NCBI GenBank assembly: GCA_045117595.1
Contig: JBGUNV010000002.1
Span: 2,659-66,658 of the forward strand
Source: Lachnospiraceae bacterium
GTDB lineage: Bacteria; Bacillota; Clostridia; Lachnospirales; Lachnospiraceae
Reading direction: 5' to 3'
DNA length: 64,000 nt
Each line of letters starts with the position of its first letter. Within the stretch, counting starts at the first letter, position 1. Positions 35,869 through 49,639 of this stretch are shown in pieces. The translations under genes were made by a program, and so were the position numbers. Under the pieces are notes generated by a model, which was not told the DNA's origin, did no database searches, and saw only the letters and a list, made by a program, of their open reading frames with translations.

Positions 35869-35897
35869 TTGTAAAAGTATGTGATTGACATTATAAT
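35869..35897 (+). promoter_or_regulatory. Putative promoter of the TIR/RyR operon
   Basis: TTGTAA (35869-35874), a 17-nt spacer, then TATAAT (35892-35897). It lies 48 nt upstream of the ATG, which has the Shine-Dalgarno sequence GAGGAGG. Confidence 0.5.
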
Positions 35898-35945: not shown

Positions 35946-37844
35946 ATGGGACTATCTAAGGAAGATATCAGAAGGAGAAATGAAGCGACCGTAGGAATAA
36001 GGACATTTGAACCCAAGGATGATAAGGATTATGTGTTTATCAGCTATAAAAGTGATAACTGGGAAATCGTTCTGGATGAAATAGTCAGAAAACTGGTCGA
36101 TAAATACGGCCTTCGTGTATATTTTGATAAGAATTTCGATCGTGATAATGAATCCTGGGTAACTAATATGGAGGATGCTATCAGAACACAAAAGTGCAAG
36201 GCAATCCTTTCATTTGTCAGTAAAGAGTATATGGAAAGTTATGCATGCCTGATGGAACTGCTGACCGCAAGGTCCAAAAAAGCAAAATCCAAACATAAAA
36301 AAGACAGACTTACCATTTGTCCCATTATAATAAGTGAGGCAAAATCTATAAATGATCTTGCATCCACATCAAGTGACAGAGTGGAAATAAAAGAATGGGA
36401 TGATTACTCGGCTATCGTAGAAAATGCATTTGAAAATGATGAGTGGGTCAAGGGTGATGTCAAGGACTCGATTGGTGAACTGTTGGATAACGGGTCAAGG
36501 GCTACTATAGAAGATATTTCATCTGCGATGGAATCAATTCTTGATGATAAAACACATCTGCGGACATATGACGGGTCGGACCTGTTCTATGAGAATCTGG
36601 TTGATTCGCTGAAAAAGGAAAGTGACACCATTTTTGAGGAGATCAAACCCGTTAAAGTCGAAAAAGAAACTCCTATAGTCGAAAAGGAAACTCCTAAGAA
36701 AACAGAAACAAAGGTTGCTCCTATCGTTGAAGAAGCAAAGATTTATCATCTGTCCACCAGAACAGGGAATATTGATGTCACATTTCAGGTGGTTGAAAAT
36801 GGTTTTATTGTTAAACAGGGCAGTAAGATACATGAGGCTCAGTTCACTCCTAAGAAGATCATGAAGGCTAACATAGATAAGATATCCCATGGGGTTCTTA
36901 CAGGAGATATTTGTATAGATGGTGACGAGGGAGTATTGTCCCGATTTATTGCGGGAAGCGATAATTATAAGGCCCAGATCAGATCTATGGTGGCCGATAA
37001 TTCCGATAATACAAATGTTTCGAAGCCGGTTGAACAAGAGAAAGAGAGCAAAGAGACAATAGGGGAAACGAAAGTCGGTGATCATTCTGTGATTGATGAC
37101 AAGAGCGCTGCCAAGGAGTTTCTTGCTAAAAAAGGTGTAAGAATCAGCAATAAACTTACTTATGCAGCTTATAACGAAAGGACAGATGGTTTTTGGGCAA
37201 ATCCGAAACCGGATAATCTAAAGGAGGAATGGACATTGATTTTGAACAACAAGATAACAGGAAAACTTGTTGTTCTTATTGTGCCACCTAATAGCATAGG
37301 ACTCGAAAGTGAGAACGTAAATGGTTTGAAAATCAGACGGGACAGACCTGTGATTGACCTCGTCATAAGCGATGATGGTGAGTATACGGATAAAAGAAGT
37401 AAGGTAAGTTTTAAACCGTTTGTTGTTGCGCAGTATTCTTATTCCGGCGACGAAAAGCCGGAGGGAAGACAAGATGGAAGTATGCGTCGCGGTGAAATAG
37501 ATTATTATGTCTATGGAGAAAAGCATTCCGGGGATCAGTCTGATCTTATGTTTGATACCATAGAAGCAGTGCTGACAAGGCATCCGGATATATGCGACAG
37601 AGCAGTACAAAAGTGTACATGTCTTGCATATGGTGACGACATCTATTCGCCTGAGGGTACTCTTGTTCCGTACTTCAGAGGAAAAAGAGAGATTACCGTT
37701 AACGGGAAAAAGGTTTATATAGGTTCGAGTTACGGCCTGGATGCCAAGAAGACTCAGATGCGTTATGTGATAAATCTGGCTCAGGAAAAGATCACGGATG
37801 TAGTTCGGATAGACAGTGAAGACCCCAGATACAGATTTGGATGA
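35946..37844 (+). CDS. TIR-domain protein with a long uncharacterised C-terminal region
   Basis: The N-terminal 110 aa, DYVFISYKSDN...RVYFDKNF...AILSFVSKEYMESYACLMELL, carry the TIR beta-A and catalytic-Glu-helix signatures. A KE/P-rich linker with the tandem repeat VEKETPIVEKETP follows. The remaining region of about 380 aa has no motif I recognise. Confidence 0.7.
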   Translation: MGLSKEDIRRRNEATVGIRTFEPKDDKDYVFISYKSDNWEIVLDEIVRKLVDKYGLRVYFDKNFDRDNESWVTNMEDAIRTQKCKAILSFVSKEYMESYACLMELLTARSKKAKSKHKKDRLTICPIIISEAKSINDLASTSSDRVEIKEWDDYSAIVENAFENDEWVKGDVKDSIGELLDNGSRATIEDISSAMESILDDKTHLRTYDGSDLFYENLVDSLKKESDTIFEEIKPVKVEKETPIVEKETPKKTETKVAPIVEEAKIYHLSTRTGNIDVTFQVVENGFIVKQGSKIHEAQFTPKKIMKANIDKISHGVLTGDICIDGDEGVLSRFIAGSDNYKAQIRSMVADNSDNTNVSKPVEQEKESKETIGETKVGDHSVIDDKSAAKEFLAKKGVRISNKLTYAAYNERTDGFWANPKPDNLKEEWTLILNNKITGKLVVLIVPPNSIGLESENVNGLKIRRDRPVIDLVISDDGEYTDKRSKVSFKPFVVAQYSYSGDEKPEGRQDGSMRRGEIDYYVYGEKHSGDQSDLMFDTIEAVLTRHPDICDRAVQKCTCLAYGDDIYSPEGTLVPYFRGKREITVNGKKVYIGSSYGLDAKKTQMRYVINLAQEKITDVVRIDSEDPRYRFG

Positions 37845-37862: not shown

Positions 37863-40301
37863 ATGGCTTATAATGCTCTCGACAGTATGAAAAGGATCAA
37901 TGAAGAATTACTGGGGGTTCAGATCGCCGGTGTTCCGAAGCTTGGAGAGGATATTTTTGATGACGGACCCAAATCAGATATACCGGCTTCGGCCTGCAGG
38001 TTTATCAGGGAATGTGAAGATCTGGGATTCAATCCCGGATCTGATGAGATTGCCTCATACAGGGAACTCCTTGAAAGATTAAATGATCAGAAGGATTTTT
38101 CGACAGATAATAAGTTTACCGGAAAAAGCGCCGGAAGAGGCCAGATACCCGAAAATGTAGAAAAGGATCTGGACAGACTTTCTTTTGAAAATGCGATAAG
38201 ACGATTCTGCAAGACAGGTTCAGGGGATGATGCATTTGATGTCTATTTCTGTTATCTGTCTATATTTTTCGGCGATTACAGAAATACACGGGATATCATC
38301 GAGATGCTCTGTGAATTTGAGAATAATGCGGGATCCCTGCTGATGAAACACAGGGATCACTATTCACATTCCGTTTATGTTTTTCTTATCGGACTTGCCA
38401 TATACGAGAACAACAGACTGTATCGTAACAGTTATTCTGAGTATTACAACCGGAAGATGAAGTCCGAGGGAAGGGAAGAGACATTAAATGAGATCGGAGC
38501 GAGAAGACATTTTCTGAAGTTCTGGGGTCTGACATCATTGTTCCATGATATCGGATATCCGTTTGAATTGCCTTTTGAGCAGATAAAAAGCTATTTTGCA
38601 AACAGTGTTTACAAGAGAACAGCCAGGAGCATCAAGGACAGTTTTATCCAGACAATGCCGTATGTGGCATATCAGAATATGAATGACTTCCTGTCGAATC
38701 TGAATATCAACTCCAGGACAATCACACAGACAGATCTTAATGAAAAGATCGATCAGTGGACAAATAATGAAAGAGTCTGTGATCTGTCGGATGTGTTCTC
38801 ATTGCAGTTATCCAAAATGTTAACGGGTTCGGAGAAGTATTACGATCCGAAGAATGATAAAAATCCGTTTACAGCTTATTGTAAGTCCCGCGGTATCAGA
38901 CTTCTGGAAGATAAAGCACCGGATAATTACCAACAGTTGTACAGACGGTATCTTCAGGATGTGCTTGGTAATAAACCGTCTCATCCGGAAGCATTCAACG
39001 GTTATATGGATCATGCCTATTTTTCTGCTGTTCTGATGCTCCATAAGATGAATGAAATGAAGGAACTACAGATTAACACGGACTATACGGATGCATTGTG
39101 TGCGATACTTTTGCACAACAGCATCTTTAAGCGGGCCATTGTAACAAATGGCAACAGGGATCATGCATTTTCCGTTGATGAGAGCCCGCTTGCATATCTG
39201 CTTATGTTATGTGATGAACTTCAATGTTGGGACAGGGCATCTTACGGACTTAACAACAGAAATGCCATTTATGCCATGGATTGTCATTTTTCGTTTGATG
39301 AATCCGATGATTCGGTGGAAGTAAGATATATTTTTGATGAGTATTTCAAAAAAAACAGACGTCTGGAGTTTTATGACTGGATAAAGGAAAAGGCAGCCGA
39401 GAAAAACAGCTCTCTCAAAGAATACTATAAGAGTTTCAGGGCGTTGGATGAAAATGATTATAAGAATCTGTATGACAGCGAAATATACAGGGATTCGGGG
39501 GAAACGGTTTATCATTACTTTTTGAACATTCTGGATAATCCTTCCGTTGATCTTCCTGAAAAGATGAATGATTATCTCCAGATGAGTACAACAGACAAAG
39601 AAAGCCCCAGTAAGTTCTTTTCCGATCTGGAAGAAATAGTAAAATTAGACGGAACAGAAGGTGTTCTTGTGAGAATACCTCCGGTAGACAGCAAAATTTC
39701 TACTGAGAAACACAAGGAAAAGAATACCTATCTCTCACGGTCAAGTTACATGCATTTATATGATTTTGCTGTAGCACTTAATTATCAATATAATTGCAGG
39801 AATAAGGAAAAAGTCTTTATCGGCGCATCTCCGGATATGATGGAGGAATCATTTGCAGATATATCACTTGAATATCAGCTGTCAAATATCAACCAGGCCA
39901 AGTCATTTGCCGGATATCTGGATGAAATAGGTGCATACTATACGGATCGCCCTGTAGGATACCCTCCTCTTGATCATTTTGAAGATGATGAACTTCGACG
40001 TCTTGGTATTATGGAGCATGACAGATGGTGGGAAGAAAAGAAATCCATGGGCTGGACAGCGGACAAATGGATCAGGGAGAAAGAGGGCGGACACGGAGAG
40101 ATAACAAGCCGGCTCGGTCTTAAGGACAGAGTATGGCTTCGGGAATGTATACATATTCATTGCGATATGAGGAAATTCTCGGAACTTGACCAGAAGGATA
40201 TCCGGAAGGATACCGACCCGATGAATGATATGGTCAGGCTGCTTGAGGAATACGACGGACTGAGGATATACAGAACGCAGAAAAACAAAAAGAATGGTTG
40301 A
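37863..40301 (+). CDS. HD-domain phosphohydrolase fused to a C-terminal RyR-like domain
   Basis: HD superfamily motifs in order: HRDHYSHS, LFHDIGYP, LLHNS, LCDELQCWD. The C-terminus has MEHDRWWEEKKSMGW ... FSELDQKDIRKDTD, which resembles the bacterial RyR repeat. Confidence 0.65.
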   Translation: MAYNALDSMKRINEELLGVQIAGVPKLGEDIFDDGPKSDIPASACRFIRECEDLGFNPGSDEIASYRELLERLNDQKDFSTDNKFTGKSAGRGQIPENVEKDLDRLSFENAIRRFCKTGSGDDAFDVYFCYLSIFFGDYRNTRDIIEMLCEFENNAGSLLMKHRDHYSHSVYVFLIGLAIYENNRLYRNSYSEYYNRKMKSEGREETLNEIGARRHFLKFWGLTSLFHDIGYPFELPFEQIKSYFANSVYKRTARSIKDSFIQTMPYVAYQNMNDFLSNLNINSRTITQTDLNEKIDQWTNNERVCDLSDVFSLQLSKMLTGSEKYYDPKNDKNPFTAYCKSRGIRLLEDKAPDNYQQLYRRYLQDVLGNKPSHPEAFNGYMDHAYFSAVLMLHKMNEMKELQINTDYTDALCAILLHNSIFKRAIVTNGNRDHAFSVDESPLAYLLMLCDELQCWDRASYGLNNRNAIYAMDCHFSFDESDDSVEVRYIFDEYFKKNRRLEFYDWIKEKAAEKNSSLKEYYKSFRALDENDYKNLYDSEIYRDSGETVYHYFLNILDNPSVDLPEKMNDYLQMSTTDKESPSKFFSDLEEIVKLDGTEGVLVRIPPVDSKISTEKHKEKNTYLSRSSYMHLYDFAVALNYQYNCRNKEKVFIGASPDMMEESFADISLEYQLSNINQAKSFAGYLDEIGAYYTDRPVGYPPLDHFEDDELRRLGIMEHDRWWEEKKSMGWTADKWIREKEGGHGEITSRLGLKDRVWLRECIHIHCDMRKFSELDQKDIRKDTDPMNDMVRLLEEYDGLRIYRTQKNKKNG

Positions 40302-41766
40302 TGAAAACAAGGAAAAAAAGAAGATAAAACTGTTCACATGGCCTCTTATCATAATATCTCTTGCGGGTGGTGTGATCAGTTATCTGTACGCAGGTTACAC
40401 GTTTGAAGATGCCTTATATTCGGCGGTTGACATGTTTGCGTTTAATATTGACGATATACCGTTAAATGCAGGCCTTCGGATATTTCGCTGGCTTGCCCCG
40501 CTGTCTGTTGCCACAACGCTTTTTATTGAGATAGCCCCGATATTCCGATGGTTTCGAGACAGGATCGTATTCTTTGCGCCGGGATCCGGCAGGACCATTA
40601 TCTACAGCGACTGTGAAGCCGGTAGCGCGTTATACGATAACATGGAAAAACATGCCGTATTAAGGAGGGAATGTACCCCTTTTGCCCTTTCGGATAATGC
40701 CAACAGATCAGTTATCCTTATGAAAAATGATAAGGATGCGCTCTCTCTTTTTCGAAAGCTCGGAAGACCTGATAACAGTTTTCTGTGTCTGAATTCGATG
40801 GAGCCGTCATTGATACCTTCATCGGGTAATACAGTTGTTTCCAATATCAATGATATAATAGCCGGTTATTTCTGGCATAAGGAGTTTATGGCCTTTGCGG
40901 GAAAGGATACGACCGGAGGACTTTTATCATGGCGCGGTCGTGATGGAATACCGGTTTTTCGAAAAGAAAACGACAGGTGTTTTCGGATCGTGATCTACGG
41001 ATTTACGGACCTCGGTAAAAGACTTCTGTACAAAGGACTGCTGTTCAACATTTTTTCACCGTCTCAACACATTATATATCACGTCTATGATCCGGATCAT
41101 AAAGTATATCTGTACCGCAAAGATATAAACAATGCTGTCTCTGTAAATGGTGATAAGGTTTTATTTCACGATAACCCGGATGATCTCGCGAAGATCCTGA
41201 ATGAAGCTGATGCGATAATAATACCCGGGTCTTCGAATCCACGTTTAATACAGGAACTGCTGTATTCAACCGCCAAACCCGAACTGTATTATTATGATCC
41301 GGAGGGAGTAGGACTTGAGACTGTATTCGCCTCAGACGATCGTGTGGTCCGGGAGGGGTTGTATGGCAGGTTACATGCGTTCGGATCGGATAAGAAGATA
41401 TTCATCGAAAAATATATTCTTCACAGCAGTCTTATAGAAAAAGCCCGGAAGATCAACGAAGACTACCTTATTTCCAATCCCGGAGAAGGACATGTGTGGG
41501 AGGAACTTTCGGGATTTGATAAAGGCTCAAACGTTAATGCAGCTGATTATATCGAGATAGGCTCAGAGGTAAGTTCGTGGGATATGTTCTCCCTTGATGA
41601 ACTTGCAAGTTTAGAACATGACAGATGGCGAAGATATAATTATTTAAATCATCAGGGTTCTAACAGCAATCCGGCGGGAAACTCCAGATATTTCGTTCCA
41701 TTTTCCGAACTTGATGAAGCTGATAAGGAAAAGAACAGAAGGATAGTAAGATTATGGACATTTTAG
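40294..41766 (+). CDS. 2-TM channel-like membrane protein with Rossmann/RCK-like segments and a C-terminal RyR-like domain
   Basis: TM1 WPLIIISLAGGVISYLYAGY, a pore-helix-like FEDALYSAVDMFAF, and TM2 FRWLAPLSVATTLFIEIAPIF. A TrkA-N-like segment is FRIVIYGFTDLGKRLL. The C-terminus has LEHDRWRRYNYL...FSELDEADKEKNRR. It overlaps the upstream gene by 8 nt. Confidence 0.55.
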   Translation: MVDENKEKKKIKLFTWPLIIISLAGGVISYLYAGYTFEDALYSAVDMFAFNIDDIPLNAGLRIFRWLAPLSVATTLFIEIAPIFRWFRDRIVFFAPGSGRTIIYSDCEAGSALYDNMEKHAVLRRECTPFALSDNANRSVILMKNDKDALSLFRKLGRPDNSFLCLNSMEPSLIPSSGNTVVSNINDIIAGYFWHKEFMAFAGKDTTGGLLSWRGRDGIPVFRKENDRCFRIVIYGFTDLGKRLLYKGLLFNIFSPSQHIIYHVYDPDHKVYLYRKDINNAVSVNGDKVLFHDNPDDLAKILNEADAIIIPGSSNPRLIQELLYSTAKPELYYYDPEGVGLETVFASDDRVVREGLYGRLHAFGSDKKIFIEKYILHSSLIEKARKINEDYLISNPGEGHVWEELSGFDKGSNVNAADYIEIGSEVSSWDMFSLDELASLEHDRWRRYNYLNHQGSNSNPAGNSRYFVPFSELDEADKEKNRRIVRLWTF

Positions 41767-41775
41767 GAGGAAAAG

Positions 41776-44625
41776 ATGAAACTTGTAATAAGGACGAGAG
41801 GCGATCTGACATCAAGAGATAAAGAAAAAGTGCTATTGGCGATTGCATCGGATGATATAGGATTATATGCCGATGTGATGATTGAGGATCTCCTTAAGGC
41901 TGCAAATGTAGCGGTATATTATCCTGCGTCAGCAAATGATACAAAAGACGGTGTGATAGAGATTGATGAGACGAAACCCGAAGAGTATTTGGAGGAATTT
42001 CGCCTGATCATATTTCCTGTAACGATGAACTTTCTGGAAAAGGATAATCCTGTCCGGGACCAGATCCTGCCGTATGTTATTCATCATAAAGCGTATATAC
42101 CCATAATACTGGAGAGGGATCTGTTGGAGAGTTTTGGTGATCATTTTGGAGACATTCAGTTCCTTGACCGGTACGGTCTATACAAAAAGGGCGAAAACGA
42201 AATCCCGTACGAGGAAAAACTGAAGCTGAGAATGAGCGAGGTCATAACCTCTGACAGCGAGCGTGACAGGATAGATGATGCATTCAGGGCTATGATATTT
42301 TTAAGTTACAGGAAGATTGACCGGGTTGAGGCGCAGAAACTGATGAATCTGGTTCATAGTGATCCGGACTGTGAGGATATAGCTATCTGGTATGATGAGT
42401 ATCTTGTACCTGGTGAGGATTTTAATGAAGCGATCAGGAGTGCCATGGATAGATCAGATGTTATCGCACTCAATGTAACGAATAATCTTCTTGAGATCAC
42501 GAACGGAAAACCCAATTATGTGATGGATCAGGAATATCCGAATGCGAGAAGGAGCCAAAAGCCCATAATCTCGGTAGAAATGGAGAAAACAGACAAAGAA
42601 GCGCTCAGGGAACATTACGAGAAAATAGATGACAGTCTGGTGACGGTTGATGAACATGATAAGGTCCCCGAAGAGCTGAAACGCGTACTGGACCGGATCC
42701 GGGATGAACTCAGGACCAAGAATGCTGACAAAAAGGCTCTTTCGGAAGAAGAGAAGGAATACTATCTGGGACTTGCATATCTGGGTGGTGTCAATACCGA
42801 GAAGGATCAGATGAGGTCGAAGGAATTACTCGAACGATCTGCAAACCAGGGCCTTGCCAGGGCAATGAAGAAACTATCCCATGCTTACAGAAACGGTGAC
42901 CTGGGAGATATCAGTATTGAAAAATCGGCGGAGTGGATGAAGGAAGCTGTTGAGAACGAGGCTGGTGAAGCTGTTGCATGTGCCGACAGAGAATCTTTTG
43001 AACTGTTCAGGGAAGACTGTCTGGACCTGTGGGATATGTATGATTCGATAGAAGATGATACCGGGAGAGACCATTGTAAAACGCTGATGGTTGATGCCTG
43101 GCGCAAACTCCGTCAGAGTATCAGAGAAGATATGGAGTTGTATGAGATCGTTACGGGATCTTGCGTCAGGGCATGCTGCAGAAGGGGCGATACAGTCACG
43201 TGCAGGGAGGTGCTTCAGGATATCGATTCACTCTTCAACAATCATCAGGGACTTGATGAATGTAAACTTGTCGTGTCACTTCGTTCGGATGCTGCATACA
43301 GAATGGGAGATTATTCTCTGGCTCAATATGTCGGGGGTGCTATGAGGATCATAGAAACAGAGTTTGGGGACAGTGTTTCCGATGATGAAATGTATGATCT
43401 GTATTATCTGATGACCAGGGGTTATTCCGGGAAGGACATAATAGACGGCCTTGCTTTATTCGGAACATCTTTGCGAGTGTCAGAGGAATATCTGCAAACA
43501 GAATATTTGTGGTGGGACAGCTCCGATAAGGCAATAGCTATCACGCAGAAGTGCCTGGCGGATGATCCGGAAGATACACTTTGGAAGAAAAGAAGAGCTG
43601 AAATACTCATGGAAAAAGGCAACCTGATCAGCCGATCCATCTGTGCAGTACAGTGTGATCTTGTTGATAAAGAAGTTGATGATGCGGCATTTTCATATAT
43701 GACTGAAGCAATAGGCCTGTATAAGGAGATCATTCATGATATCGGGGATAAAAATGAGATCAGGAGAGTAATAGAAGAGATTAAAAGATCCGGATTCTTC
43801 CTGATATCCAACTATCCCGAGAGGATGCCTGATATAACGGGAGTAGAGTTCTACAGGTATTCGGTAGAACTGGCAGAATCTTTGTATAAAGAGGAGAAAA
43901 GTCGTGAAAATCTGCTGTTTCTCTGGGAGACAGTAAGTTATTGCTGCGAGATAGGCTATATATATGATCTTCCGGATAAGGCCATCGCTATCGCAAAGGA
44001 ACTGTATGAGAGCGATCACACGCTATCGTCATACGAACACGTTGCCAAGGCATATGAACTGAAGGCTACACGAGGGTTTGGCAGGGCCGGCGAACTCGAA
44101 TATGAGATTGCCACCAATGAAGCCGGTGCACAGGCACAATCGGGTGACTATGATGATATCGATATGGAATCGTTTGCGCGACTGTTTGATGAGTATATTG
44201 CTTTTTTCAGCAACAGAAGAGATGCGGTTGAACCGGAGGAGACGGATTTTATACTGTTAAAAAGGGAAGGAACCGAAGCTCTGTCTTATGCAGTGGCTAT
44301 ATACAGGGAAGTGTATGATAAAGCGGGAATGATGTCTGAACGCTATCGGAAAAAGATTCTCGGTAATATCATCAGCTGTTACAGATCGTTTGAGGCATGT
44401 GCCGATGTGGAAGATGGTGATTTCGGTAAAAAGGCGCTCGATAAACTGGCAGAGGGAATGGATTTTATACTGAATGAAGCTTCCGCGAAGGATACCATAA
44501 TTTCGCCTGACTGGTTTAAAGAATGGAGAAGTATGTATAATACGGCCCTTGACGGCGGTTATGACAGCGAGGCACTCTCAGTCAGAAGATCCCGTGCCGA
44601 GAGTTTGGCGGGAGACAGGATCTGA
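41776..44625 (+). CDS. Tandem TIR-like domains + SEL1/TPR-like repeat protein
   Basis: Residues about 172-270 read IFLSYRKIDRVEAQKL...IAIWYDEYLVPGEDFNEAIRSAMDRSDVIAL...YVMDQEY, which is TIR-like. Residues 1-130 resemble a second, degenerate TIR. A SEL1-like segment reads YYLGLAYLGGVNTEKDQMRSKELLERSANQGLARAMKKLSHAY. A helical-repeat region of about 550 aa follows. Confidence 0.65.
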   Translation: MKLVIRTRGDLTSRDKEKVLLAIASDDIGLYADVMIEDLLKAANVAVYYPASANDTKDGVIEIDETKPEEYLEEFRLIIFPVTMNFLEKDNPVRDQILPYVIHHKAYIPIILERDLLESFGDHFGDIQFLDRYGLYKKGENEIPYEEKLKLRMSEVITSDSERDRIDDAFRAMIFLSYRKIDRVEAQKLMNLVHSDPDCEDIAIWYDEYLVPGEDFNEAIRSAMDRSDVIALNVTNNLLEITNGKPNYVMDQEYPNARRSQKPIISVEMEKTDKEALREHYEKIDDSLVTVDEHDKVPEELKRVLDRIRDELRTKNADKKALSEEEKEYYLGLAYLGGVNTEKDQMRSKELLERSANQGLARAMKKLSHAYRNGDLGDISIEKSAEWMKEAVENEAGEAVACADRESFELFREDCLDLWDMYDSIEDDTGRDHCKTLMVDAWRKLRQSIREDMELYEIVTGSCVRACCRRGDTVTCREVLQDIDSLFNNHQGLDECKLVVSLRSDAAYRMGDYSLAQYVGGAMRIIETEFGDSVSDDEMYDLYYLMTRGYSGKDIIDGLALFGTSLRVSEEYLQTEYLWWDSSDKAIAITQKCLADDPEDTLWKKRRAEILMEKGNLISRSICAVQCDLVDKEVDDAAFSYMTEAIGLYKEIIHDIGDKNEIRRVIEEIKRSGFFLISNYPERMPDITGVEFYRYSVELAESLYKEEKSRENLLFLWETVSYCCEIGYIYDLPDKAIAIAKELYESDHTLSSYEHVAKAYELKATRGFGRAGELEYEIATNEAGAQAQSGDYDDIDMESFARLFDEYIAFFSNRRDAVEPEETDFILLKREGTEALSYAVAIYREVYDKAGMMSERYRKKILGNIISCYRSFEACADVEDGDFGKKALDKLAEGMDFILNEASAKDTIISPDWFKEWRSMYNTALDGGYDSEALSVRRSRAESLAGDRI

Positions 44626-44630
44626 ATCGT

Positions 44631-45869
44631 ATGACTATGAAAACAACCGGTTCGGGAAAAAGTGAATATGAGAAGCTCATGTCGGCATATATGGAAGTCT
44701 GGATAGTTTATGTTCTCAGAACGTTTTCGACACGGGAACATCCCATGAGCCGGAAGGAGATCGCCGACAAGGTCAGTGAACTGATAAATATCGGTACTGT
44801 ATCTGAAACCAGACAATCGGATAATACCATCGCCAAAACCGTTTCCAGAAGACTCGATGAACTTGAAATGATGGGTAATCTCTACGAAGGAGAAGGTGGG
44901 AGCCATGTTCCTCCGGCGTTTTACAGAGTGATGGGAGGAGCGGTAAAAGTAATACAGGATCGCCCTGTCAGATACTATTTTGATCCGATACTTGCTCCCG
45001 GAGAAGTATCGATGATATGTGCCGCGATCGAGAGTAATCATTATCTGTCCCCCGAAGAGATCAATTACCTGATAAAGCGTGAGTGTGCCGTACTGGGGTA
45101 TCAGGAACAGGAATTGCATCTTCCTGTAACAAACTCTGCATCCGGAAGATCGCTCAGGCTTCCCAAACGTCCCAGGTCGGGAAACGATCTCACTCTCCCG
45201 CCGGCAAGGTCATCGGTAACTCTCAGAAAGATCGCAGTTATACAGTATGCCATAGCAAGAAAACTTATGATAAGAGTTATTCCGGGGACATATTCAAACC
45301 GCGACGGCAAGATCGTATTCGGACCCAAAAGGGACAGGGAGAGTATTCTCAATCCGTATGCCATGATCTCTCAGAACGGTCAGTATTATATTGTCGTTAC
45401 CCATGAAGGTTTTACAAATCCCACGCATTACAGGATCGACAGGCTGTTTTCGGTAAGTCTCTGTGAAGATGAGAATCCGAGGAGAAAGCAGATAGCCGGG
45501 TATAAAAAGCGGGAACCTATACCTGTAAGGCTTCAGAGATTTTTTACCGGAAACGGGAAGTTCAAGGCGGATGAGTATACGGCCATATATCCGCTGATGA
45601 TATATAATGAGGGCGAGGGAATAAAACAGTGCCGGTTCCTGTGTGCCAAAAGCGGTGTTACGGTAGCGATAGACCACTTCGGAGTCGGAGTAGGTGTGAA
45701 GATGGAAGAGACGGATGATGATTCAAAGGTTTTGTTTACAGTCATGGCTGATTACAATAATGTCAGATATTTCTGTATCCAACAAAACGCCATTGTAAGT
45801 CCCGTCGCTCCCGATGAACTGAAAGATGATGTGAAACAGGCACTGAAAAAAGCATATGACGCGATATAG
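44631..45869 (+). CDS. wHTH-WYL-WCX transcriptional regulator (BrxR/CapW-like class)
   Basis: The N-terminal wHTH reads MSRKEIADKVSE...TVSRRLDELE. The WYL core reads LNPYAMISQNGQYYIVVTHEGFTNPTHYRIDRLFSV. The C-terminus, FTVMADYNNVRYFCIQQNAIVSPVAPDEL, is WCX-like. Confidence 0.7.
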   Translation: MTMKTTGSGKSEYEKLMSAYMEVWIVYVLRTFSTREHPMSRKEIADKVSELINIGTVSETRQSDNTIAKTVSRRLDELEMMGNLYEGEGGSHVPPAFYRVMGGAVKVIQDRPVRYYFDPILAPGEVSMICAAIESNHYLSPEEINYLIKRECAVLGYQEQELHLPVTNSASGRSLRLPKRPRSGNDLTLPPARSSVTLRKIAVIQYAIARKLMIRVIPGTYSNRDGKIVFGPKRDRESILNPYAMISQNGQYYIVVTHEGFTNPTHYRIDRLFSVSLCEDENPRRKQIAGYKKREPIPVRLQRFFTGNGKFKADEYTAIYPLMIYNEGEGIKQCRFLCAKSGVTVAIDHFGVGVGVKMEETDDDSKVLFTVMADYNNVRYFCIQQNAIVSPVAPDELKDDVKQALKKAYDAI

Positions 45870-45888: not shown

Positions 45889-45917
45889 AAACACATATTT
45901 GTAACGGAGATAATATA

Positions 45918-45952
45918 AGATCACAGAAATGGTTCTGTGGTCTTATTTTTTT
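45918..45952 (+). terminator. Intrinsic terminator closing the five-gene operon
   Basis: Hairpin AGATCACAGAA-ATGG-TTCTGTGGTCT followed by TATTTTTTT. Confidence 0.7.
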
Positions 45953-45973
45953 GAGTATGCAGGAGGGAAGATT

Positions 45974-47647
45974 ATGGGTAATGAGGTTTCGGTAAAGGAG
46001 CTGATATTAAATGAGGACGAGCTTACCGGAACGCGTGTAAAACGCCGGAAGGATAAGAGCGGATACACATATCGCGTCATCATGCAGAGCGGTTGTGATT
46101 TTGCGATAGAGCGTACCCGTAAGAACCAGAAGGGTTCAGTACGTCTTGTAATACTTGTCAGCCGGGAGCAGTACTATCTGGAGGAGAACGGAAAAGTCAG
46201 AAGACTGAACCGCAACATGTTCAAGAGTTTCTTCGGCTGTCTTGAGAAGGGCAGCACGATCCCCCTTCCGGATGTAAACTGGCTTGATCATATAGAATAT
46301 GACGGACCCCGGGGAATGGTACAGAAGATAGCGGATATCCTGTTTGTCAGAGAGTATATCCGGTTCCACGATATGATCCGGCATGGGAGTTTTGCCTGTC
46401 AGAACGAACATGATTTCGGATTCTGTTCAAATATCTGTGAGGTACGCTATACGGGGGATAACAGGAAACTGATCGGTGATTTTGCTCCGTATGCCGAACC
46501 GGATGTTCAGATGGATGAGGTGTTTGGGAATCCCTTTTTACCGAATGATCCGTTTCGGGACAATGAAGGGATTGAAGGTGATTGTCTGTTTGACCCTGTG
46601 TTTATCGTCAGATATTATGCCGGATACAATCCTGCAAAGGAGTGCGGCATCAGATTGGTGGAAAATGCGGGATTCTGGATGCTTAGGCCATCTTATGAGG
46701 AATTGCAGTGCAGCCTTTGTAATCTCTCTCCCAGGTTATATGAGTATATGCTGAGCATGTTATCCGAGCGGGCACAGGTTTCCAAAAAGGAGCTGCTTAC
46801 AGGGATATTATGTGACTGGAAGCGGGTTGAATCCATGTTATTCCAGAGCTTTCCGGCCTTTGTGATGATAGAATGCTCATTTGGAACGAATACGGCCCGT
46901 AAGGCGATGAACATGTATCTGGATAGCGGGATAGCGGATATCATACCGGCAACGCAGATGTCCATATTCCTGTTCGGATCCCGGATAATCCTGCCTTTGT
47001 CTGATCAAAATACAGGAAACATATATCATCTTAAAAGTGAGTCTTTTTTAAGGTACATGTTCAACGAATCCGTCAGACAGGGTTATATGCATAATATGAA
47101 TCTTTTTCTTTACCAGTGGGGACAGTTTCTGTTCCTGCAGCGGGCGATGGAATGTAAGAGGGTGGATAAGTATCCGAAATATCTGGCATCCCGTGTTGTG
47201 GAACTGATGTCGATGATACCGGATTACAGCGAGCACGTAGAAAAGATGCTGTGGGAAGAGGCCGTGAGGTATGCCGAACCTCTGGAATACAGGGGAGAAA
47301 AATACAGTATCATCATCCCCAGACGAACCAGAGATATAGTCGAAGAGGCCGAAAGGCAGGGTAATTGCCTGAGGTCATACGAGTCTGCAATTTTGCGGCG
47401 ACAGACAAGGATATGTTTTCTCAGATACACCGACCCGGCCAGGGCGGACATATCACTTGTGACCCTGGAGGTATCGGGAGATGCGGTCATACAGTGCAAG
47501 GCGCGTTACAACGCCGTTCCATCAATCGAACAACTGGAATTCATCAGGGAGTGGGAGGCGGCCCGCTCACTTCACGGGGAATATTATCCAAATTATTACA
47601 CTTATCAGGAATTTCAGGGCATAGATACAGATGATGAAACTGCATAA
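45974..47647 (+). CDS. PcfJ-like domain protein
   Basis: Start at ATG 45974 behind AGGAGGGA. The C-terminal block EAERQGNCLRSYESAILRRQTRICFLRY...SLVTLEV...VIQCKARYN resembles the PcfJ-like family signature (E..GN/HC...Y...I..G......R). The N-terminal region of about 420 aa is unassigned. Confidence 0.55.
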   Translation: MGNEVSVKELILNEDELTGTRVKRRKDKSGYTYRVIMQSGCDFAIERTRKNQKGSVRLVILVSREQYYLEENGKVRRLNRNMFKSFFGCLEKGSTIPLPDVNWLDHIEYDGPRGMVQKIADILFVREYIRFHDMIRHGSFACQNEHDFGFCSNICEVRYTGDNRKLIGDFAPYAEPDVQMDEVFGNPFLPNDPFRDNEGIEGDCLFDPVFIVRYYAGYNPAKECGIRLVENAGFWMLRPSYEELQCSLCNLSPRLYEYMLSMLSERAQVSKKELLTGILCDWKRVESMLFQSFPAFVMIECSFGTNTARKAMNMYLDSGIADIIPATQMSIFLFGSRIILPLSDQNTGNIYHLKSESFLRYMFNESVRQGYMHNMNLFLYQWGQFLFLQRAMECKRVDKYPKYLASRVVELMSMIPDYSEHVEKMLWEEAVRYAEPLEYRGEKYSIIIPRRTRDIVEEAERQGNCLRSYESAILRRQTRICFLRYTDPARADISLVTLEVSGDAVIQCKARYNAVPSIEQLEFIREWEAARSLHGEYYPNYYTYQEFQGIDTDDETA

Positions 47648-47668
47648 GAATTCACAGGAGGGACAGGT

Positions 47669-49639
47669 ATGTCAAAAAACATGAACCTTTTAAAACCGGA
47701 TATACGAGATGGACATTTTAAGGGTACAAATGATAATGAACGGTACAGAATCCTTCATATACCGGCGGATGACTGGGATGACCGCCTGGAAGAGGATATC
47801 AGGGCCGGAGCGGTGCAATACGGTGCATGCAGGGAATGTGCCGGGGATAACCATTTCAGATTTGTTATCATTCAGTGCGACACGGAAGAAGAGGGACTGA
47901 ATGCGATAACTTATATCAGGGGAGCCCGGGGATTTGGCGGGGATGCGGATGATGAAGACGATCCCGTCGAAGATGACGGGGATTACGGATGGTTTGAATT
48001 CGATAATAATCTGCCTGTGATCAGCATGAATGAGATAGCAGCATATGAAAAGGAGACATCTGAAGATGTTAATAATCAGTTTTTGTTTCAGGAGGCGAAG
48101 AAGAAGGAAAAAAGCAATCCTTACTGGCTGAGTTACAACGGAGATGTGATCATAACCGACGTGTGTATGACGGATGATTTCGGAAACATTGCGCTTCGTA
48201 ATTATGATCTGAATGCTTTTTCCAATCCTTTCATGGATTCAACCGGCAGTAAATGGAAATGGCATGAATATTTTGATAGATTTATGGAGGATCCGGATGC
48301 AACAGTGTTCTATGTTCTGGTACGGGACAGAGGATTGAAGGAGTTGTTTGAAGAACATAAACAGGATGATACGGATGATGAGTTTGATGATTTCGGTATG
48401 TACAGATGCAATTTTGATGAGGACTATTCTCTGTGTTCGCTCGTGCTGAAATATACGGCGGAAACAGTTGTGATCGATGCTAAAAAGGAGCAGAAGGAGA
48501 AGTATTACACAGGCCTGTTTAAAAACTGGCTGGAAGAATACGGATACACTCTTGAAAAAAGATTCCCGGTCAGGAAGCTGCTTAAGGGCATTTGTATGAT
48601 GGACCCGGCCCCGTCACAGACAATGGACAGGATCTTAAGGTTTATCCGCCACAAGTATCCGGATGTCAAGGTTCTTGAGAGGTCATTGTTCACCCAGACC
48701 GGAGTGCTCAAAAATGTATTTGATTACAAGAACGAAGAGAAGAAGCGCCAGAACCATGAACTTACCATGGATGATCTTGTCGGGATGAAGGATATCAAAA
48801 AGCAGTTCAATGACATCATCAGATCGATCAAGTTCAGTCGAAAGAGGCAGGAAAAAGGTCTTCCGATGCTCGATTACAGGAATATTTTTCTGCTCATAGG
48901 TGCCCCGGGTACAGCCAAGACAACCATGGCCAATATTCTCGGCAGGATGATGAGACAGGAAAAGCTCCTCGGCGGCACCAGATTCGGATCATTTTCCGGA
49001 GCGCAGCTTAAGGCTGAATACGTCGGACAGACGGCCCATAAGGTTCATAGTATATTTGAAAATCACGATATAATAATCATTGATGAGGCTTATTCACTTA
49101 CGGCATCGGATCACGGCGGCATGGATACCTACAGTCAGGAGGCTCTCGGACAGCTTGCCATCGAACTTGAGGAACATGGGACAGACAGGCTTGTATTCTT
49201 TGCGGGGTACGGCGGAAATGATGTAAGTGAGAAGAATAACAAGATGAGGGAGTTTCTTGATGCCAATCCGGGGATCAAGAGCAGGATCAACGGAACGATC
49301 GTTTTTCCTTCATACAGCGCTAAGCAGATGGTTGAGATAGTAAAGGGCATAGCCGGCAGATACGGGTATATATTTGAGGACGGAGCGCTTGACGGACTTG
49401 AAGGATACTATGCAAAGCGTATATGTGACGAGAGGTTCGGTAACGGCAGGGAGGCCAGGAGTTTTGTCGACAACTGTCAGATGACGCTTGCATCAAGAAT
49501 CATGAACATTCCGCCTAATAAGCAGACCAGAAAAATGATGCAGCTTATCACGAAGGAAGACGTGGATATGACCATAAAGCGGCTGTCCGAATCCGACGAT
49601 AATCAGACCGGGAAAAAAGTGATATACGGATTTGCCTGA
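47669..49639 (+). CDS. AAA+ ATPase, SpoVK/CbbX/EccA-like, with an unassigned N-terminal region of about 380 aa
   Basis: Walker A LLIGAPGTAKTT, Walker B IIIIDEAYSL, and a CbbX-type tail with GNGREARSFV. The N-terminus has acidic low-complexity stretches. Confidence 0.8.
   Translation: MSKNMNLLKPDIRDGHFKGTNDNERYRILHIPADDWDDRLEEDIRAGAVQYGACRECAGDNHFRFVIIQCDTEEEGLNAITYIRGARGFGGDADDEDDPVEDDGDYGWFEFDNNLPVISMNEIAAYEKETSEDVNNQFLFQEAKKKEKSNPYWLSYNGDVIITDVCMTDDFGNIALRNYDLNAFSNPFMDSTGSKWKWHEYFDRFMEDPDATVFYVLVRDRGLKELFEEHKQDDTDDEFDDFGMYRCNFDEDYSLCSLVLKYTAETVVIDAKKEQKEKYYTGLFKNWLEEYGYTLEKRFPVRKLLKGICMMDPAPSQTMDRILRFIRHKYPDVKVLERSLFTQTGVLKNVFDYKNEEKKRQNHELTMDDLVGMKDIKKQFNDIIRSIKFSRKRQEKGLPMLDYRNIFLLIGAPGTAKTTMANILGRMMRQEKLLGGTRFGSFSGAQLKAEYVGQTAHKVHSIFENHDIIIIDEAYSLTASDHGGMDTYSQEALGQLAIELEEHGTDRLVFFAGYGGNDVSEKNNKMREFLDANPGIKSRINGTIVFPSYSAKQMVEIVKGIAGRYGYIFEDGALDGLEGYYAKRICDERFGNGREARSFVDNCQMTLASRIMNIPPNKQTRKMMQLITKEDVDMTIKRLSESDDNQTGKKVIYGFA

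Follow-up and report, generated by a model that had tools for sequence, protein, structure and literature searches.

A filter-less K+-channel-like protein with a RyR domain, encoded between TIR genes of a Lachnospiraceae bacterium, as a candidate membrane effector of a Thoeris-like system

Among described bacterial defence systems, the locus reported here is closest to Thoeris. Yirmiya et al. distinguished 29 putative Thoeris types, of which types V-XI were validated, several of them with membrane effectors (10.64898/2025.12.03.692087). The membrane effectors are Macro-TM in type II, DUF2270 in type V, DUF6650-TM in type VI, SLATT in type VII and ThsK in type X, the last being annotated as an "ion channel" whose signal is unknown; the systems confirmed by experiment include some with a membrane or ion-channel effector (10.64898/2025.12.03.692087). 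A second relevant group is formed by the phage RyR-domain proteins termed RyDEP, which bind 2'/3' cyclic ADP-ribose (2'/3'cADPR) through H75, W78, H100 and D117 and act as glycosidases or sponges for it; the His and Asp of their catalytic dyad are also conserved in the non-catalytic RyR repeats of animals (10.64898/2026.05.28.727677). The activity of animal ryanodine receptors (RyRs) has in turn been linked to cADPR, a product of TIR and CD38 (10.64898/2025.12.03.692087; 10.64898/2026.05.28.727677). Here we describe a 490-amino-acid (490-aa) protein encoded on the forward strand, at 40294-41766, of a 64,000-nucleotide (nt) stretch of a Lachnospiraceae genome (assembly GCA_045117595.1, contig JBGUNV010000002.1, positions 2,659 to 66,658), referred to in its full length as the window.

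The locus resembles Thoeris in that TIR genes adjoin a membrane protein with a cytoplasmic ligand-type domain at a defence-island location, and in that loci of both kinds often have several or variable TIR genes around a constant effector. In the window, TIR_2 genes lie on both sides of the 490-aa gene within one operon (Table 1). In an as yet undescribed anti-phage system of bacteria, the 490-aa protein is probably the component that damages the membrane. We favour, at a probability of roughly 0.6, a Thoeris-like TIR system in which RyR-bearing effectors sense a TIR-made signal and the 490-aa protein serves as the membrane effector.

An earlier, sequence-only reading of the window had seen in this protein the two-transmembrane (2-TM) pore layout of a K+ channel with the selectivity filter replaced. 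All of the motifs it quoted were found in place: TM1 WPLIIISLAGGVISYLYAGY (residues 16-35), the amphipathic helix FEDALYSAVDMFAF (residues 37-50), FAFNIDDIP (residues 48-56) at the site of the filter and TM2 FRWLAPLSVATTLFIEIAPIF (residues 64-84). In 19-residue windows, hydropathy reaches the transmembrane level at two places only, near residues 19-28 and 72-76. K and R are abundant at the N-terminus and RWFRDR stands just after TM2, from which both ends of the protein are predicted to be cytoplasmic. An AlphaFold2 (AF2) monomer model built on an input alignment of 115 sequences (predicted local distance difference test 92, predicted template modelling score 0.89) shows a helix at residues 4-32, a second one at 37-47, a loop at 48-58 and a long helix at 59-94. 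Model, hydropathy and the positive-inside rule together match the pore topology of K+ channels (TM1, a putatively re-entrant pore helix, loop and TM2, with cytoplasmic ends).

Beyond TM2, the model contains two alpha/beta domains (strands in residues 101-184 and 229-363) and a helical C-terminal domain (residues 378-489). The two Rossmann-like segments proposed earlier are borne out by the model, and IVIYGFTDLGKRLL with its degenerate glycine motif was found at residues 232-245; the suggested membership in the RCK/TrkA-N domains stays tentative. The protein has no TrkA_N match in Pfam, and no relative, of the RCK and KTN kinds included, was retrieved from PDB sequences with a profile of the central Rossmann part. 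A full-length Foldseek search against PDB returned weak, mostly generic two-Rossmann matches, headed by two-domain dehydrogenases (E 2e-4); hSlo1 (8gh9), with its pore and tandem RCK domains, came fifth (564 columns, E 1e-3). The family consensus in the second Rossmann-like domain is IIGFGxLG, and a complete GxGxxG is present in about 56% of the family (G236 95%, middle Gly 56%, which is Thr in the 490-aa protein, and G241 77%). Searched as a single sequence, the protein gave nothing above threshold in Pfam, NCBIfam, PADLOC or PDB sequences. Its match to Pfam RyR was weak (E 0.17, 12.6 bits against a cut-off of 27.4 bits), and Ion_trans_2 (PF07885) was not matched even at E < 10.

Absence of the filter extends far beyond the window. 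An exhaustive phmmer search (E < 1e-3, clusters at 50% identity) returned at least 361 cluster representatives, mostly of 440-530 aa and full length. Pfam RyR (PF02026) is matched by 92 of 100 aligned members and Ion_trans_2 by only two, P0008 and P0009, both of which carry TTVGYGD precisely at the position aligned with FAFNIDD of the query. None of the 98 filter-less members matches the Ion_trans_2 model; GYG at the filter place is absent from all of them, and the columns of the loop vary. Starting from P0008, a further search retrieved 113 canonical-filter proteins of equal length and domain order, and when 84 filter-less proteins were placed in one tree with 21 filter-bearing ones, a single, fully supported branch (100) split the two groups. 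Because none of the 98 members has a filter and one such branch separates the groups, the absence of the filter is, as judged from the alignment and the tree, a trait of the whole diverse family and not a lesion of the gene in the window, a point that the sequence-only reading had not noticed.

The TM layout is kept across the 98 filter-less homologues. Conserved positions of the N-terminal module are P22, G26, G29, Y30, G34, D39-A40-x-Y42, L47-Y48 and N58, and in the (E)IARWxAP motif at the start of TM2 the counts among the 98 members are 87 for R65, 83 for W66, 87 for A68 and 75 for P69. The loop that replaces the filter (about residues 49-57) is variable and often acidic. Collinearity with the filter-bearing sister proteins, the AF2 topology and the Foldseek match to Slo1 make it likely, though not proven, that the module derives from a K+ channel. 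Since direct profile alignment of the N-terminal 100 residues is weak (see below), we do not claim pore homology from sequence alone.

The sister subfamily (Ion_trans_2 E 7e-11, TTVGYGD) has a cytoplasmic part homologous to that of the filter-less proteins. One copy is present in the same genome, on contig C66 (L100:3286-7939), as a canonical K+ channel of 532 aa with an Ion_trans_2 filter and a RyR domain; genes for a 617-aa soluble RyR-motif protein and a 391-aa protein follow it. No TIR is visible on this 10-kb contig, and it could not be established that the large beta-propeller gene running off its end encodes a truncated TIR-WD40 protein. The genes of canonical-filter channels almost always overlap, start on stop, with that of a soluble partner (about 620 aa; 537 aa in L103), which contains a RyR motif and a Rossmann-like stretch with GxGxxG. 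At a distance of two to three genes from the pair, a TIR-TPR gene is present in L090 and L104, and not in L087, L103 or L106; two of six distinct readable contexts with a TIR-TPR gene nearby are too few to decide on a TIR linkage of this subfamily. A class-level search of 400 genomes found two canonical-filter carriers. Another fusion of RyR to a signalling output is P0269, a 691-aa protein in which a RyR domain is joined to a guanylate/adenylate cyclase domain (PF00211).

RyR domains occur in bacteria, archaea and viruses. Searched against PDB, the family profile matches ryanodine-receptor repeat structures (E 2e-23), a Bacteroides "putative ryanodine receptor" (E about 1e-11) and the phage RyDEP structure 35TM (E 5e-7). 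In the register of the 35TM match, the family columns that correspond to H75, W78, H100 and D117 of RyDEP are conserved at 99% (H442), 98% (W445), 94% (His) and 80% (Asp), and the complete H-W-W-H-D signature is present in 65 of 84 species-level members. The RyR domain is the likeliest signal sensor of the family. Its probable sensor role, and its degenerate state in the window protein, had been overlooked in the sequence-only reading. By residue mapping, the domain of the 490-aa protein retains EHDRW (H442, W445), has lost the second His together with the W-x-Y-G loop, and has N481 in place of the Asp.

The second His is absent only from a four-member subclade, which consists of the window protein and its three nearest relatives, and all four have an HD-RyR gene directly upstream. 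The presence of a second RyR-bearing gene upstream, as proposed earlier, was supported in the window: the 812-aa protein has a complete RyR signature (E718-H719-x-R721-W722, W731, H766, K782-D783) and weak matches to RyR structures in PDB (E 0.009-0.3). Because both the RyR domain and the glycine motif of the 490-aa protein are degenerate, we propose that sensing may have moved in this subclade to the co-translated HD-RyR partner.

The strongest indication of an immune role comes from the genomic context. A scan with one genome per species gave 248 species-level loci, all in Clostridia and mainly in Lachnospiraceae and Oscillospiraceae of gut and rumen, and the family is patchy, being present in 9 of 41 related genomes. 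Neighbouring proteins were clustered for 86 loci (numbered with the prefix L) and the window. The commonest cluster is the TIR family of the first operon gene of the window (39 loci), followed by the HD-RyR family (25 loci) and a 405-aa PD-(D/E)XK + RAMA protein (12 loci). With a profile hidden Markov model (HMM) built from the neighbouring TIR proteins, 59 of 87 loci gave a match at a distance of up to about 5 kb. When loci with at least 2.5 kb of flank on both sides were taken as assessable (n=73), 60 of them (82%) had a TIR gene (56) or a DUF4062 gene (4). A TIR gene directly adjoins the family gene in 42 of 81 loci (same strand in 30), and in 59 of 81 the closest one is no more than two genes away. 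The 3.03 Mb genome of the window has five TIR_2 matches in total, two of them flanking the 490-aa gene; at this density, such proximity to a TIR would be expected for about 2% of random genes. All major clades of the family tree show the linkage. It strongly favours a role as immune-system effector, so that the earlier idea of an effector gains much support while that reading as a whole is upheld in part.

The build of the TIR partner varies (TIR-unknown, TIR-WD40, TIR-STAND-TPR, TIR-Sel1/TPR, DUF4062-NACHT-TPR) while the RyR effector stays constant. Close metagenome homologues show the order TIR, protein of about 800 aa and channel-like protein (L001-L004), and two loci (L005, L006) consist of TIR and channel-like genes only. 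Variable TIR proteins around a constant effector, together with these two-gene minimal loci, fit an effector role for the family. In at least 10 species an operon of four genes encodes HD-RyR (about 665 aa), TIR (about 550 aa), a PD-(D/E)XK_4 + RAMA nuclease (405 aa) and the filter-less channel-RyR protein. This looks like the canonical form of the system, and the window like a rearranged variant without the nuclease.

Several loci carry further genes of possible relevance. In one clade, giant DUF4062-NACHT-TPR proteins (1400-1630 aa) are encoded directly downstream of family members and replace the classical TIR gene; DUF4062 is reported as a TIR-like NAD+-hydrolysing domain (10.64898/2026.05.01.722283). 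In two clades, PAS-GGDEF(-EAL) genes immediately precede family members; one of these clades (L085/L081/L059/L049) has no nearby TIR, and a link to cyclic di-GMP signalling is possible there. A microbial PARG-type (poly-ADP-ribose glycohydrolase) gene adjoins the operon of one of the closest homologues (L004:12799-13548), which places a further enzyme of ADP-ribose handling nearby. In a relative of 57% identity (L001:11479-13662), a second short TIR gene, situated downstream of the channel-like gene, has a GNAT acetyltransferase gene on either side, and a gene for a 1082-aa HD-RyR paralogue follows.

In the window itself, the 490-aa gene is the third of five tightly spaced same-strand genes, in the order TIR, HD-RyR, channel-like RyR, TIR-Sel1 and WYL, the intergenic distances being 18, -8, 9 and 5 nt. 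The start of the gene overlaps the end of the HD-like gene by 8 nt, as had been stated (ATGGTTGA, with aATGgtTGA). The first TIR protein, presumed to be the sensor and signal generator, keeps all conserved TIR columns, including a Glu found in 64 of 67 partner TIRs, which is the putative catalytic Glu. The HD-RyR protein is presumed to be a second effector or a signal processor. H163, H166, H169, H228-D229, D383-H384, H418 and D451 are invariant across its 25 homologues. No Pfam model, HD included, matches the 812-aa protein, and Foldseek with its AF2 model (predicted local distance difference test 80) found nothing significant, the best match being HD-GYP Bd1817 (E 0.7), with a Bt-hRyR chimera also listed. 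Its HD and RyR parts are therefore candidate assignments drawn from invariant motifs and weak matches.

The second TIR protein has a ThsB-like match in PADLOC (E 1.7e-4) and clusters with TIR-Sel1/TPR neighbours in L008, L066 and L080. Its conserved Glu column holds Asp, and it may be catalytically altered or regulatory. WYL regulators also adjoin family members in L010, L013, L001 and L004. An AAA+ ATPase (AAA + AAA_lid_6, with weak IetA-like PADLOC matches) is a recurrent companion alongside them. The promoter-like site ahead of the operon is a pattern match, such sites being no commoner in the region than in shuffled sequence. The G+C content of the operon region is 39-45%, compared with 47-49% in the flanks, and the system sits on a small low-GC island.

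Table 1. Features of the operon in the window and of related loci (aa, amino acids; positions without a locus number refer to the window).
Feature	Position	Strand	Length	Basis or remark
Promoter-like site TTGTAA-17-TATAAT	35869..35897	+		consensus scan, 10/12 matches; ahead of operon
TIR-domain protein, TIR at about residues 30-138, long uncharacterised C-terminal region	35946..37844	+	632 aa	Pfam TIR_2 E 6.4e-13
HD-like phosphohydrolase/nuclease candidate, intact C-terminal RyR	37863..40301	+	812 aa	motifs, weak matches
2-TM protein of K+-channel-like layout lacking the filter; two Rossmann-like domains, RyR domain	40294..41766	+	490 aa	
TM1	40339..40398	+		hydropathy; AF2 helix; family-conserved P22/G26/G29/Y30/G34
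Short pore-helix-like helix and variable loop at the TVGYG place	40402..40467	+		AF2; alignment to P0008/P0009
TM2, beginning with the family motif	40483..40545	+		hydropathy; AF2 helix
Rossmann-like domain 1, residues 101-198	40594..40887	+		AF2 strand/helix pattern; Foldseek two-Rossmann-domain enzymes, hSlo1
Rossmann-like domain 2, residues 229-363, degenerate glycine motif G236-F-T-D-L-G241	40978..41382	+		AF2
Degenerate RyR domain, residues 434-489	41593..41760	+		family profile; residue mapping
Second TIR protein, TIR at about residues 174-285, Sel1/TPR-like repeats	41776..44625	+	949 aa	Pfam TIR_2 E 1.9e-7, Sel1
WYL-domain regulator, last operon gene	44631..45869	+		PADLOC WYL E 3.8e-10
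Terminator-like hairpin and T-run	45915..45946	+		14-pair stem, then TTTTTTT
PcfJ-like protein, then AAA+ ATPase	45929..49639	+		Pfam PcfJ, AAA, AAA_lid_6
Homologous AAA genes	L001:3970-5988, L004:82-2082, L009:8627-10603, L010:6661-7629			
Four-gene operon loci	L009, L011, L013, L016, L022, L024, L034, L039, L082, L086			upstream of position ~6000
DUF4062-NACHT-TPR genes	L067:7441-11697, L072:7483-12384, L080, L038:1-384			L080: 1616-aa gene
PAS-GGDEF(-EAL) loci	L085:4268-5956, L059, L081, L049; L051:4631-5947, L071, L083			two clades
Canonical-filter pairs	L087:3122-6560, L090:3133-6584, L104:5142-8569, L106:5130-8575, L103:7001-10146			

These observations can be combined into a proposed mechanism. 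Its observed basis is the architecture, the absence of the filter throughout the family, the homology to RyR, the association with TIR genes and the layout of the operon; production of a signal, its ligand, gating, a pore and a defence phenotype are inferred. Infection would activate a flanking TIR protein through its large C-terminal or repeat region, and the activated TIR would convert NAD+ into an ADP-ribose-derived signal. The signal would be captured by RyR domains, the fold used by phage RyDEP for 2'/3'cADPR. Ligand binding in the cytoplasmic Rossmann-Rossmann-RyR assembly would then act on the K+-channel-derived 2-TM module, which may open or assemble as a leak; the leak is proposed to be non-selective because the module has no selectivity filter, and it would probably be cation-preferring. 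The cell would be depolarised and phage growth halted. The co-translated HD-RyR protein may be a second signal-responsive enzyme, either a nucleic-acid or nucleotide hydrolase or a terminator of the signal, and the PD-(D/E)XK partners of other loci may attack nucleotides or nucleic acids. Dimers or tandem pairs are the working form of RyR domains both in RyDEP and in RyRs. In the window subclade, where the RyR domain of the channel protein itself is degenerate, the HD partner with its intact RyR may be needed for sensing (for instance within a RyR-RyR heterodimer), or else the Rossmann domain may be.

Several points weigh against this mechanism. A number of the partner TIRs are STAND/Avs-like, and in such proteins the TIR is usually an NAD+-depleting effector, not a maker of signals. 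A pore formed by the 490-aa protein is putative, and with an unconserved loop in place of the filter the TM module may serve simply to anchor the protein or to bring subunits together. When the N-terminal 100 residues were compared by hhalign with the N-termini of true channels, P was 0.003 and the probability 4%, and no K+ channel was among the matches of the family profile to PDB sequences. No PADLOC model matches the 490-aa protein. Its glycine motif is degenerate, as read from the alignment, and its RyR domain retains two of the four ligand residues (second His replaced by S or a gap, Asp by Asn). Finally, 13 assessable loci (about 18%) have no TIR and lie beside UvrAB, FtsH, MnmA, glycosidase and GGDEF/EAL genes; either the TIR of these loci is encoded elsewhere or some members have another role.

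The same points feed the alternatives. If the STAND/Avs-like partners are NAD+-depleting enzymes, the 490-aa protein might be their sensor or partner, which would detect a phage-induced change in membrane state or nucleotide pools and activate them, or it might be an independent neighbour in the island, as defence genes are known to cluster. The resemblance of TIR-STAND-TPR, TIR-WD40 and DUF4062-NACHT-TPR partners to self-contained Avs-like sensor-effectors speaks for it, and DUF4062 is reported to hydrolyse NAD+ (10.64898/2026.05.01.722283). However, these partners already have sensor-type repeat domains of their own, and the tight operonic linkage (adjacent TIR in 42 of 81 loci, same strand in 30) is at odds with mere neighbourhood. 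The linkage also persists in all major clades while the TIR build changes, which fits a shared downstream effector better than an upstream sensor, and RyR is now a documented TIR-signal-binding fold. We regard this explanation as unlikely. The variable loop leads to another one, in which the 2-TM module only anchors a buffer or terminator at the membrane; the RyR domain would sequester or cleave a TIR-made cADPR-type signal, setting a threshold or switching the system off, and killing would be left to the HD and PD-(D/E)XK proteins or to NAD+ depletion by the TIRs. The glycosidase and sponge activities of RyDEP-type domains, and conservation of the dyad His (99%) and Asp (80%) in the family, agree with such a role. 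Yet both residues are also kept in the non-catalytic animal repeats (10.64898/2026.05.28.727677), and catalysis is improbable in the window protein because it has Asn for the Asp and no second His. A buffer would need neither a conserved TM module (D39/A40/Y42/Y48/N58/R65/W66/A68/P69) nor two Rossmann domains, and in the two-gene loci L005 and L006 the family protein is the only candidate effector. We therefore hold a buffering or terminating role to be quite improbable.

An ordinary function in ion homeostasis, as a ligand-regulated cation channel or a K+-uptake regulator of the Ktr/Trk/MthK kind without an immune role, would account for the 2-TM and Rossmann-like layout, for the canonical-filter sister with one copy in the same genome and for the 13 orphan loci in housekeeping surroundings. 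It is very hard to reconcile with the absence of a filter from all 98 members, with the lack of a TrkA_N or Ion_trans_2 match in Pfam, with presence in only 9 of 41 related genomes, with a TIR linkage of 82% against about 2% expected, and with the low-GC island and its WYL regulator, and we give it next to no weight. The narrower form, a housekeeping K+-uptake regulator, which the sequence-only reading had named as the finding that would undo it, was rejected in view of the missing filter, the patchy occurrence and the linkage to TIR genes, the housekeeping-side orphans notwithstanding.

If a Thoeris-like system with RyR-bearing effectors is indeed encoded here, it would be a widespread, undescribed TIR immune system of gut and rumen Clostridia, occurring at 248 loci at the species level and in at least 361 clusters (50% identity). 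The domain through which its effectors are addressed would be RyR, a fold so far seen only as a counter-defence tool of phages and as an enigmatic regulatory repeat of animals. The Thoeris repertoire would gain a new sensor domain, and the RyR sponges and glycosidases of phages would be explained as mimics of the host's own receptor. A K+-channel scaffold would have become, by loss of its filter, a probable cell-killing device, with a canonical sister in the same genome for comparison, and the family would offer a tractable bacterial model for the way RyR couples nucleotide binding to a channel-like membrane module. A bolder and decidedly tentative proposal, which we think may well prove wrong, is that of a bacterial axis from TIR to RyR-domain channels. 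A messenger of the cyclic ADP-ribose type, made by a TIR enzyme, would be read by RyR on K+-channel-derived proteins with and without a filter. The axis would be the prokaryotic equivalent of the disputed animal link between cADPR and the ryanodine receptor, and possibly its evolutionary origin. The system would then be a new Thoeris type with a RyR sensor and several RyR-tagged effectors (channel-like protein, HD enzyme and soluble Rossmann-RyR protein).

The "ion channel" of type X Thoeris was considered as a possible identity of the 490-aa protein and rejected. As ThsK we took, on the ground of gene adjacency, P0390 of B. cereus, whose neighbouring TIR shares 89% identity with that of type X in B. 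cereus Q1. P0390 is a multi-TM protein of 246 aa without Rossmann or RyR parts, and hhalign against the family gave a probability of 0.2%. The type X TIRs are small ThsB_TIR proteins, whereas those of the window are large multidomain TIR_2 proteins. The words RyR, TrkA and ryanodine are absent from the text of Yirmiya et al. and from the inspected parts of its supplement, and within the same material a RyR sensor domain, HD-RyR proteins and PD-(D/E)XK co-effectors go unmentioned (10.64898/2025.12.03.692087). A full-text search of the literature for host RyR-domain effectors in TIR systems found none, the RyDEP preprint being the only return (10.64898/2026.05.28.727677). Furthermore, the membrane-effector Thoeris types have been validated by experiment, whereas the defence function of the system described here is predicted.

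RyDEP (Lopez Rivera et al., 10.64898/2026.05.28.727677; PDB 35TM) shares with the family the RyR (PF02026) fold and the conserved ligand residues, but it is encoded by phages, small and soluble, and its action is to destroy or sequester the signal of the host. The RyR domain of the family is host-encoded, lies C-terminal to a membrane/Rossmann protein within a TIR operon and, in the window member, keeps only the His and Trp. The eukaryotic cation channels with RyR domains (ryanodine receptors and the oomycete PKDRR, PMC4820453) are alike in the fusion of a RyR domain to a cation-channel-type module, but they have a 6-TM RyR/PKD pore and tandem RyR pairs, in contrast to the 2-TM module and the single repeat found here; nothing in our analysis bears on Ca2+ release. 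With the 2-TM K+ channels that have tandem RCK domains, such as MthK and Slo1/BK, the family shares the order of TM1, P-helix, loop and TM2 with both ends inside, followed by two Rossmann-type domains. GsuK is a further 2-TM K+ channel with cytoplasmic tandem RCK domains. Compared with these channels, the family has no filter, carries an extra RyR domain and is a TIR-linked accessory instead of a housekeeping component. The system is best classed with the known TIR defence systems that act through a membrane effector, and the elements that are new relative to them are its RyR sensor domain and its filter-less K+-channel scaffold.

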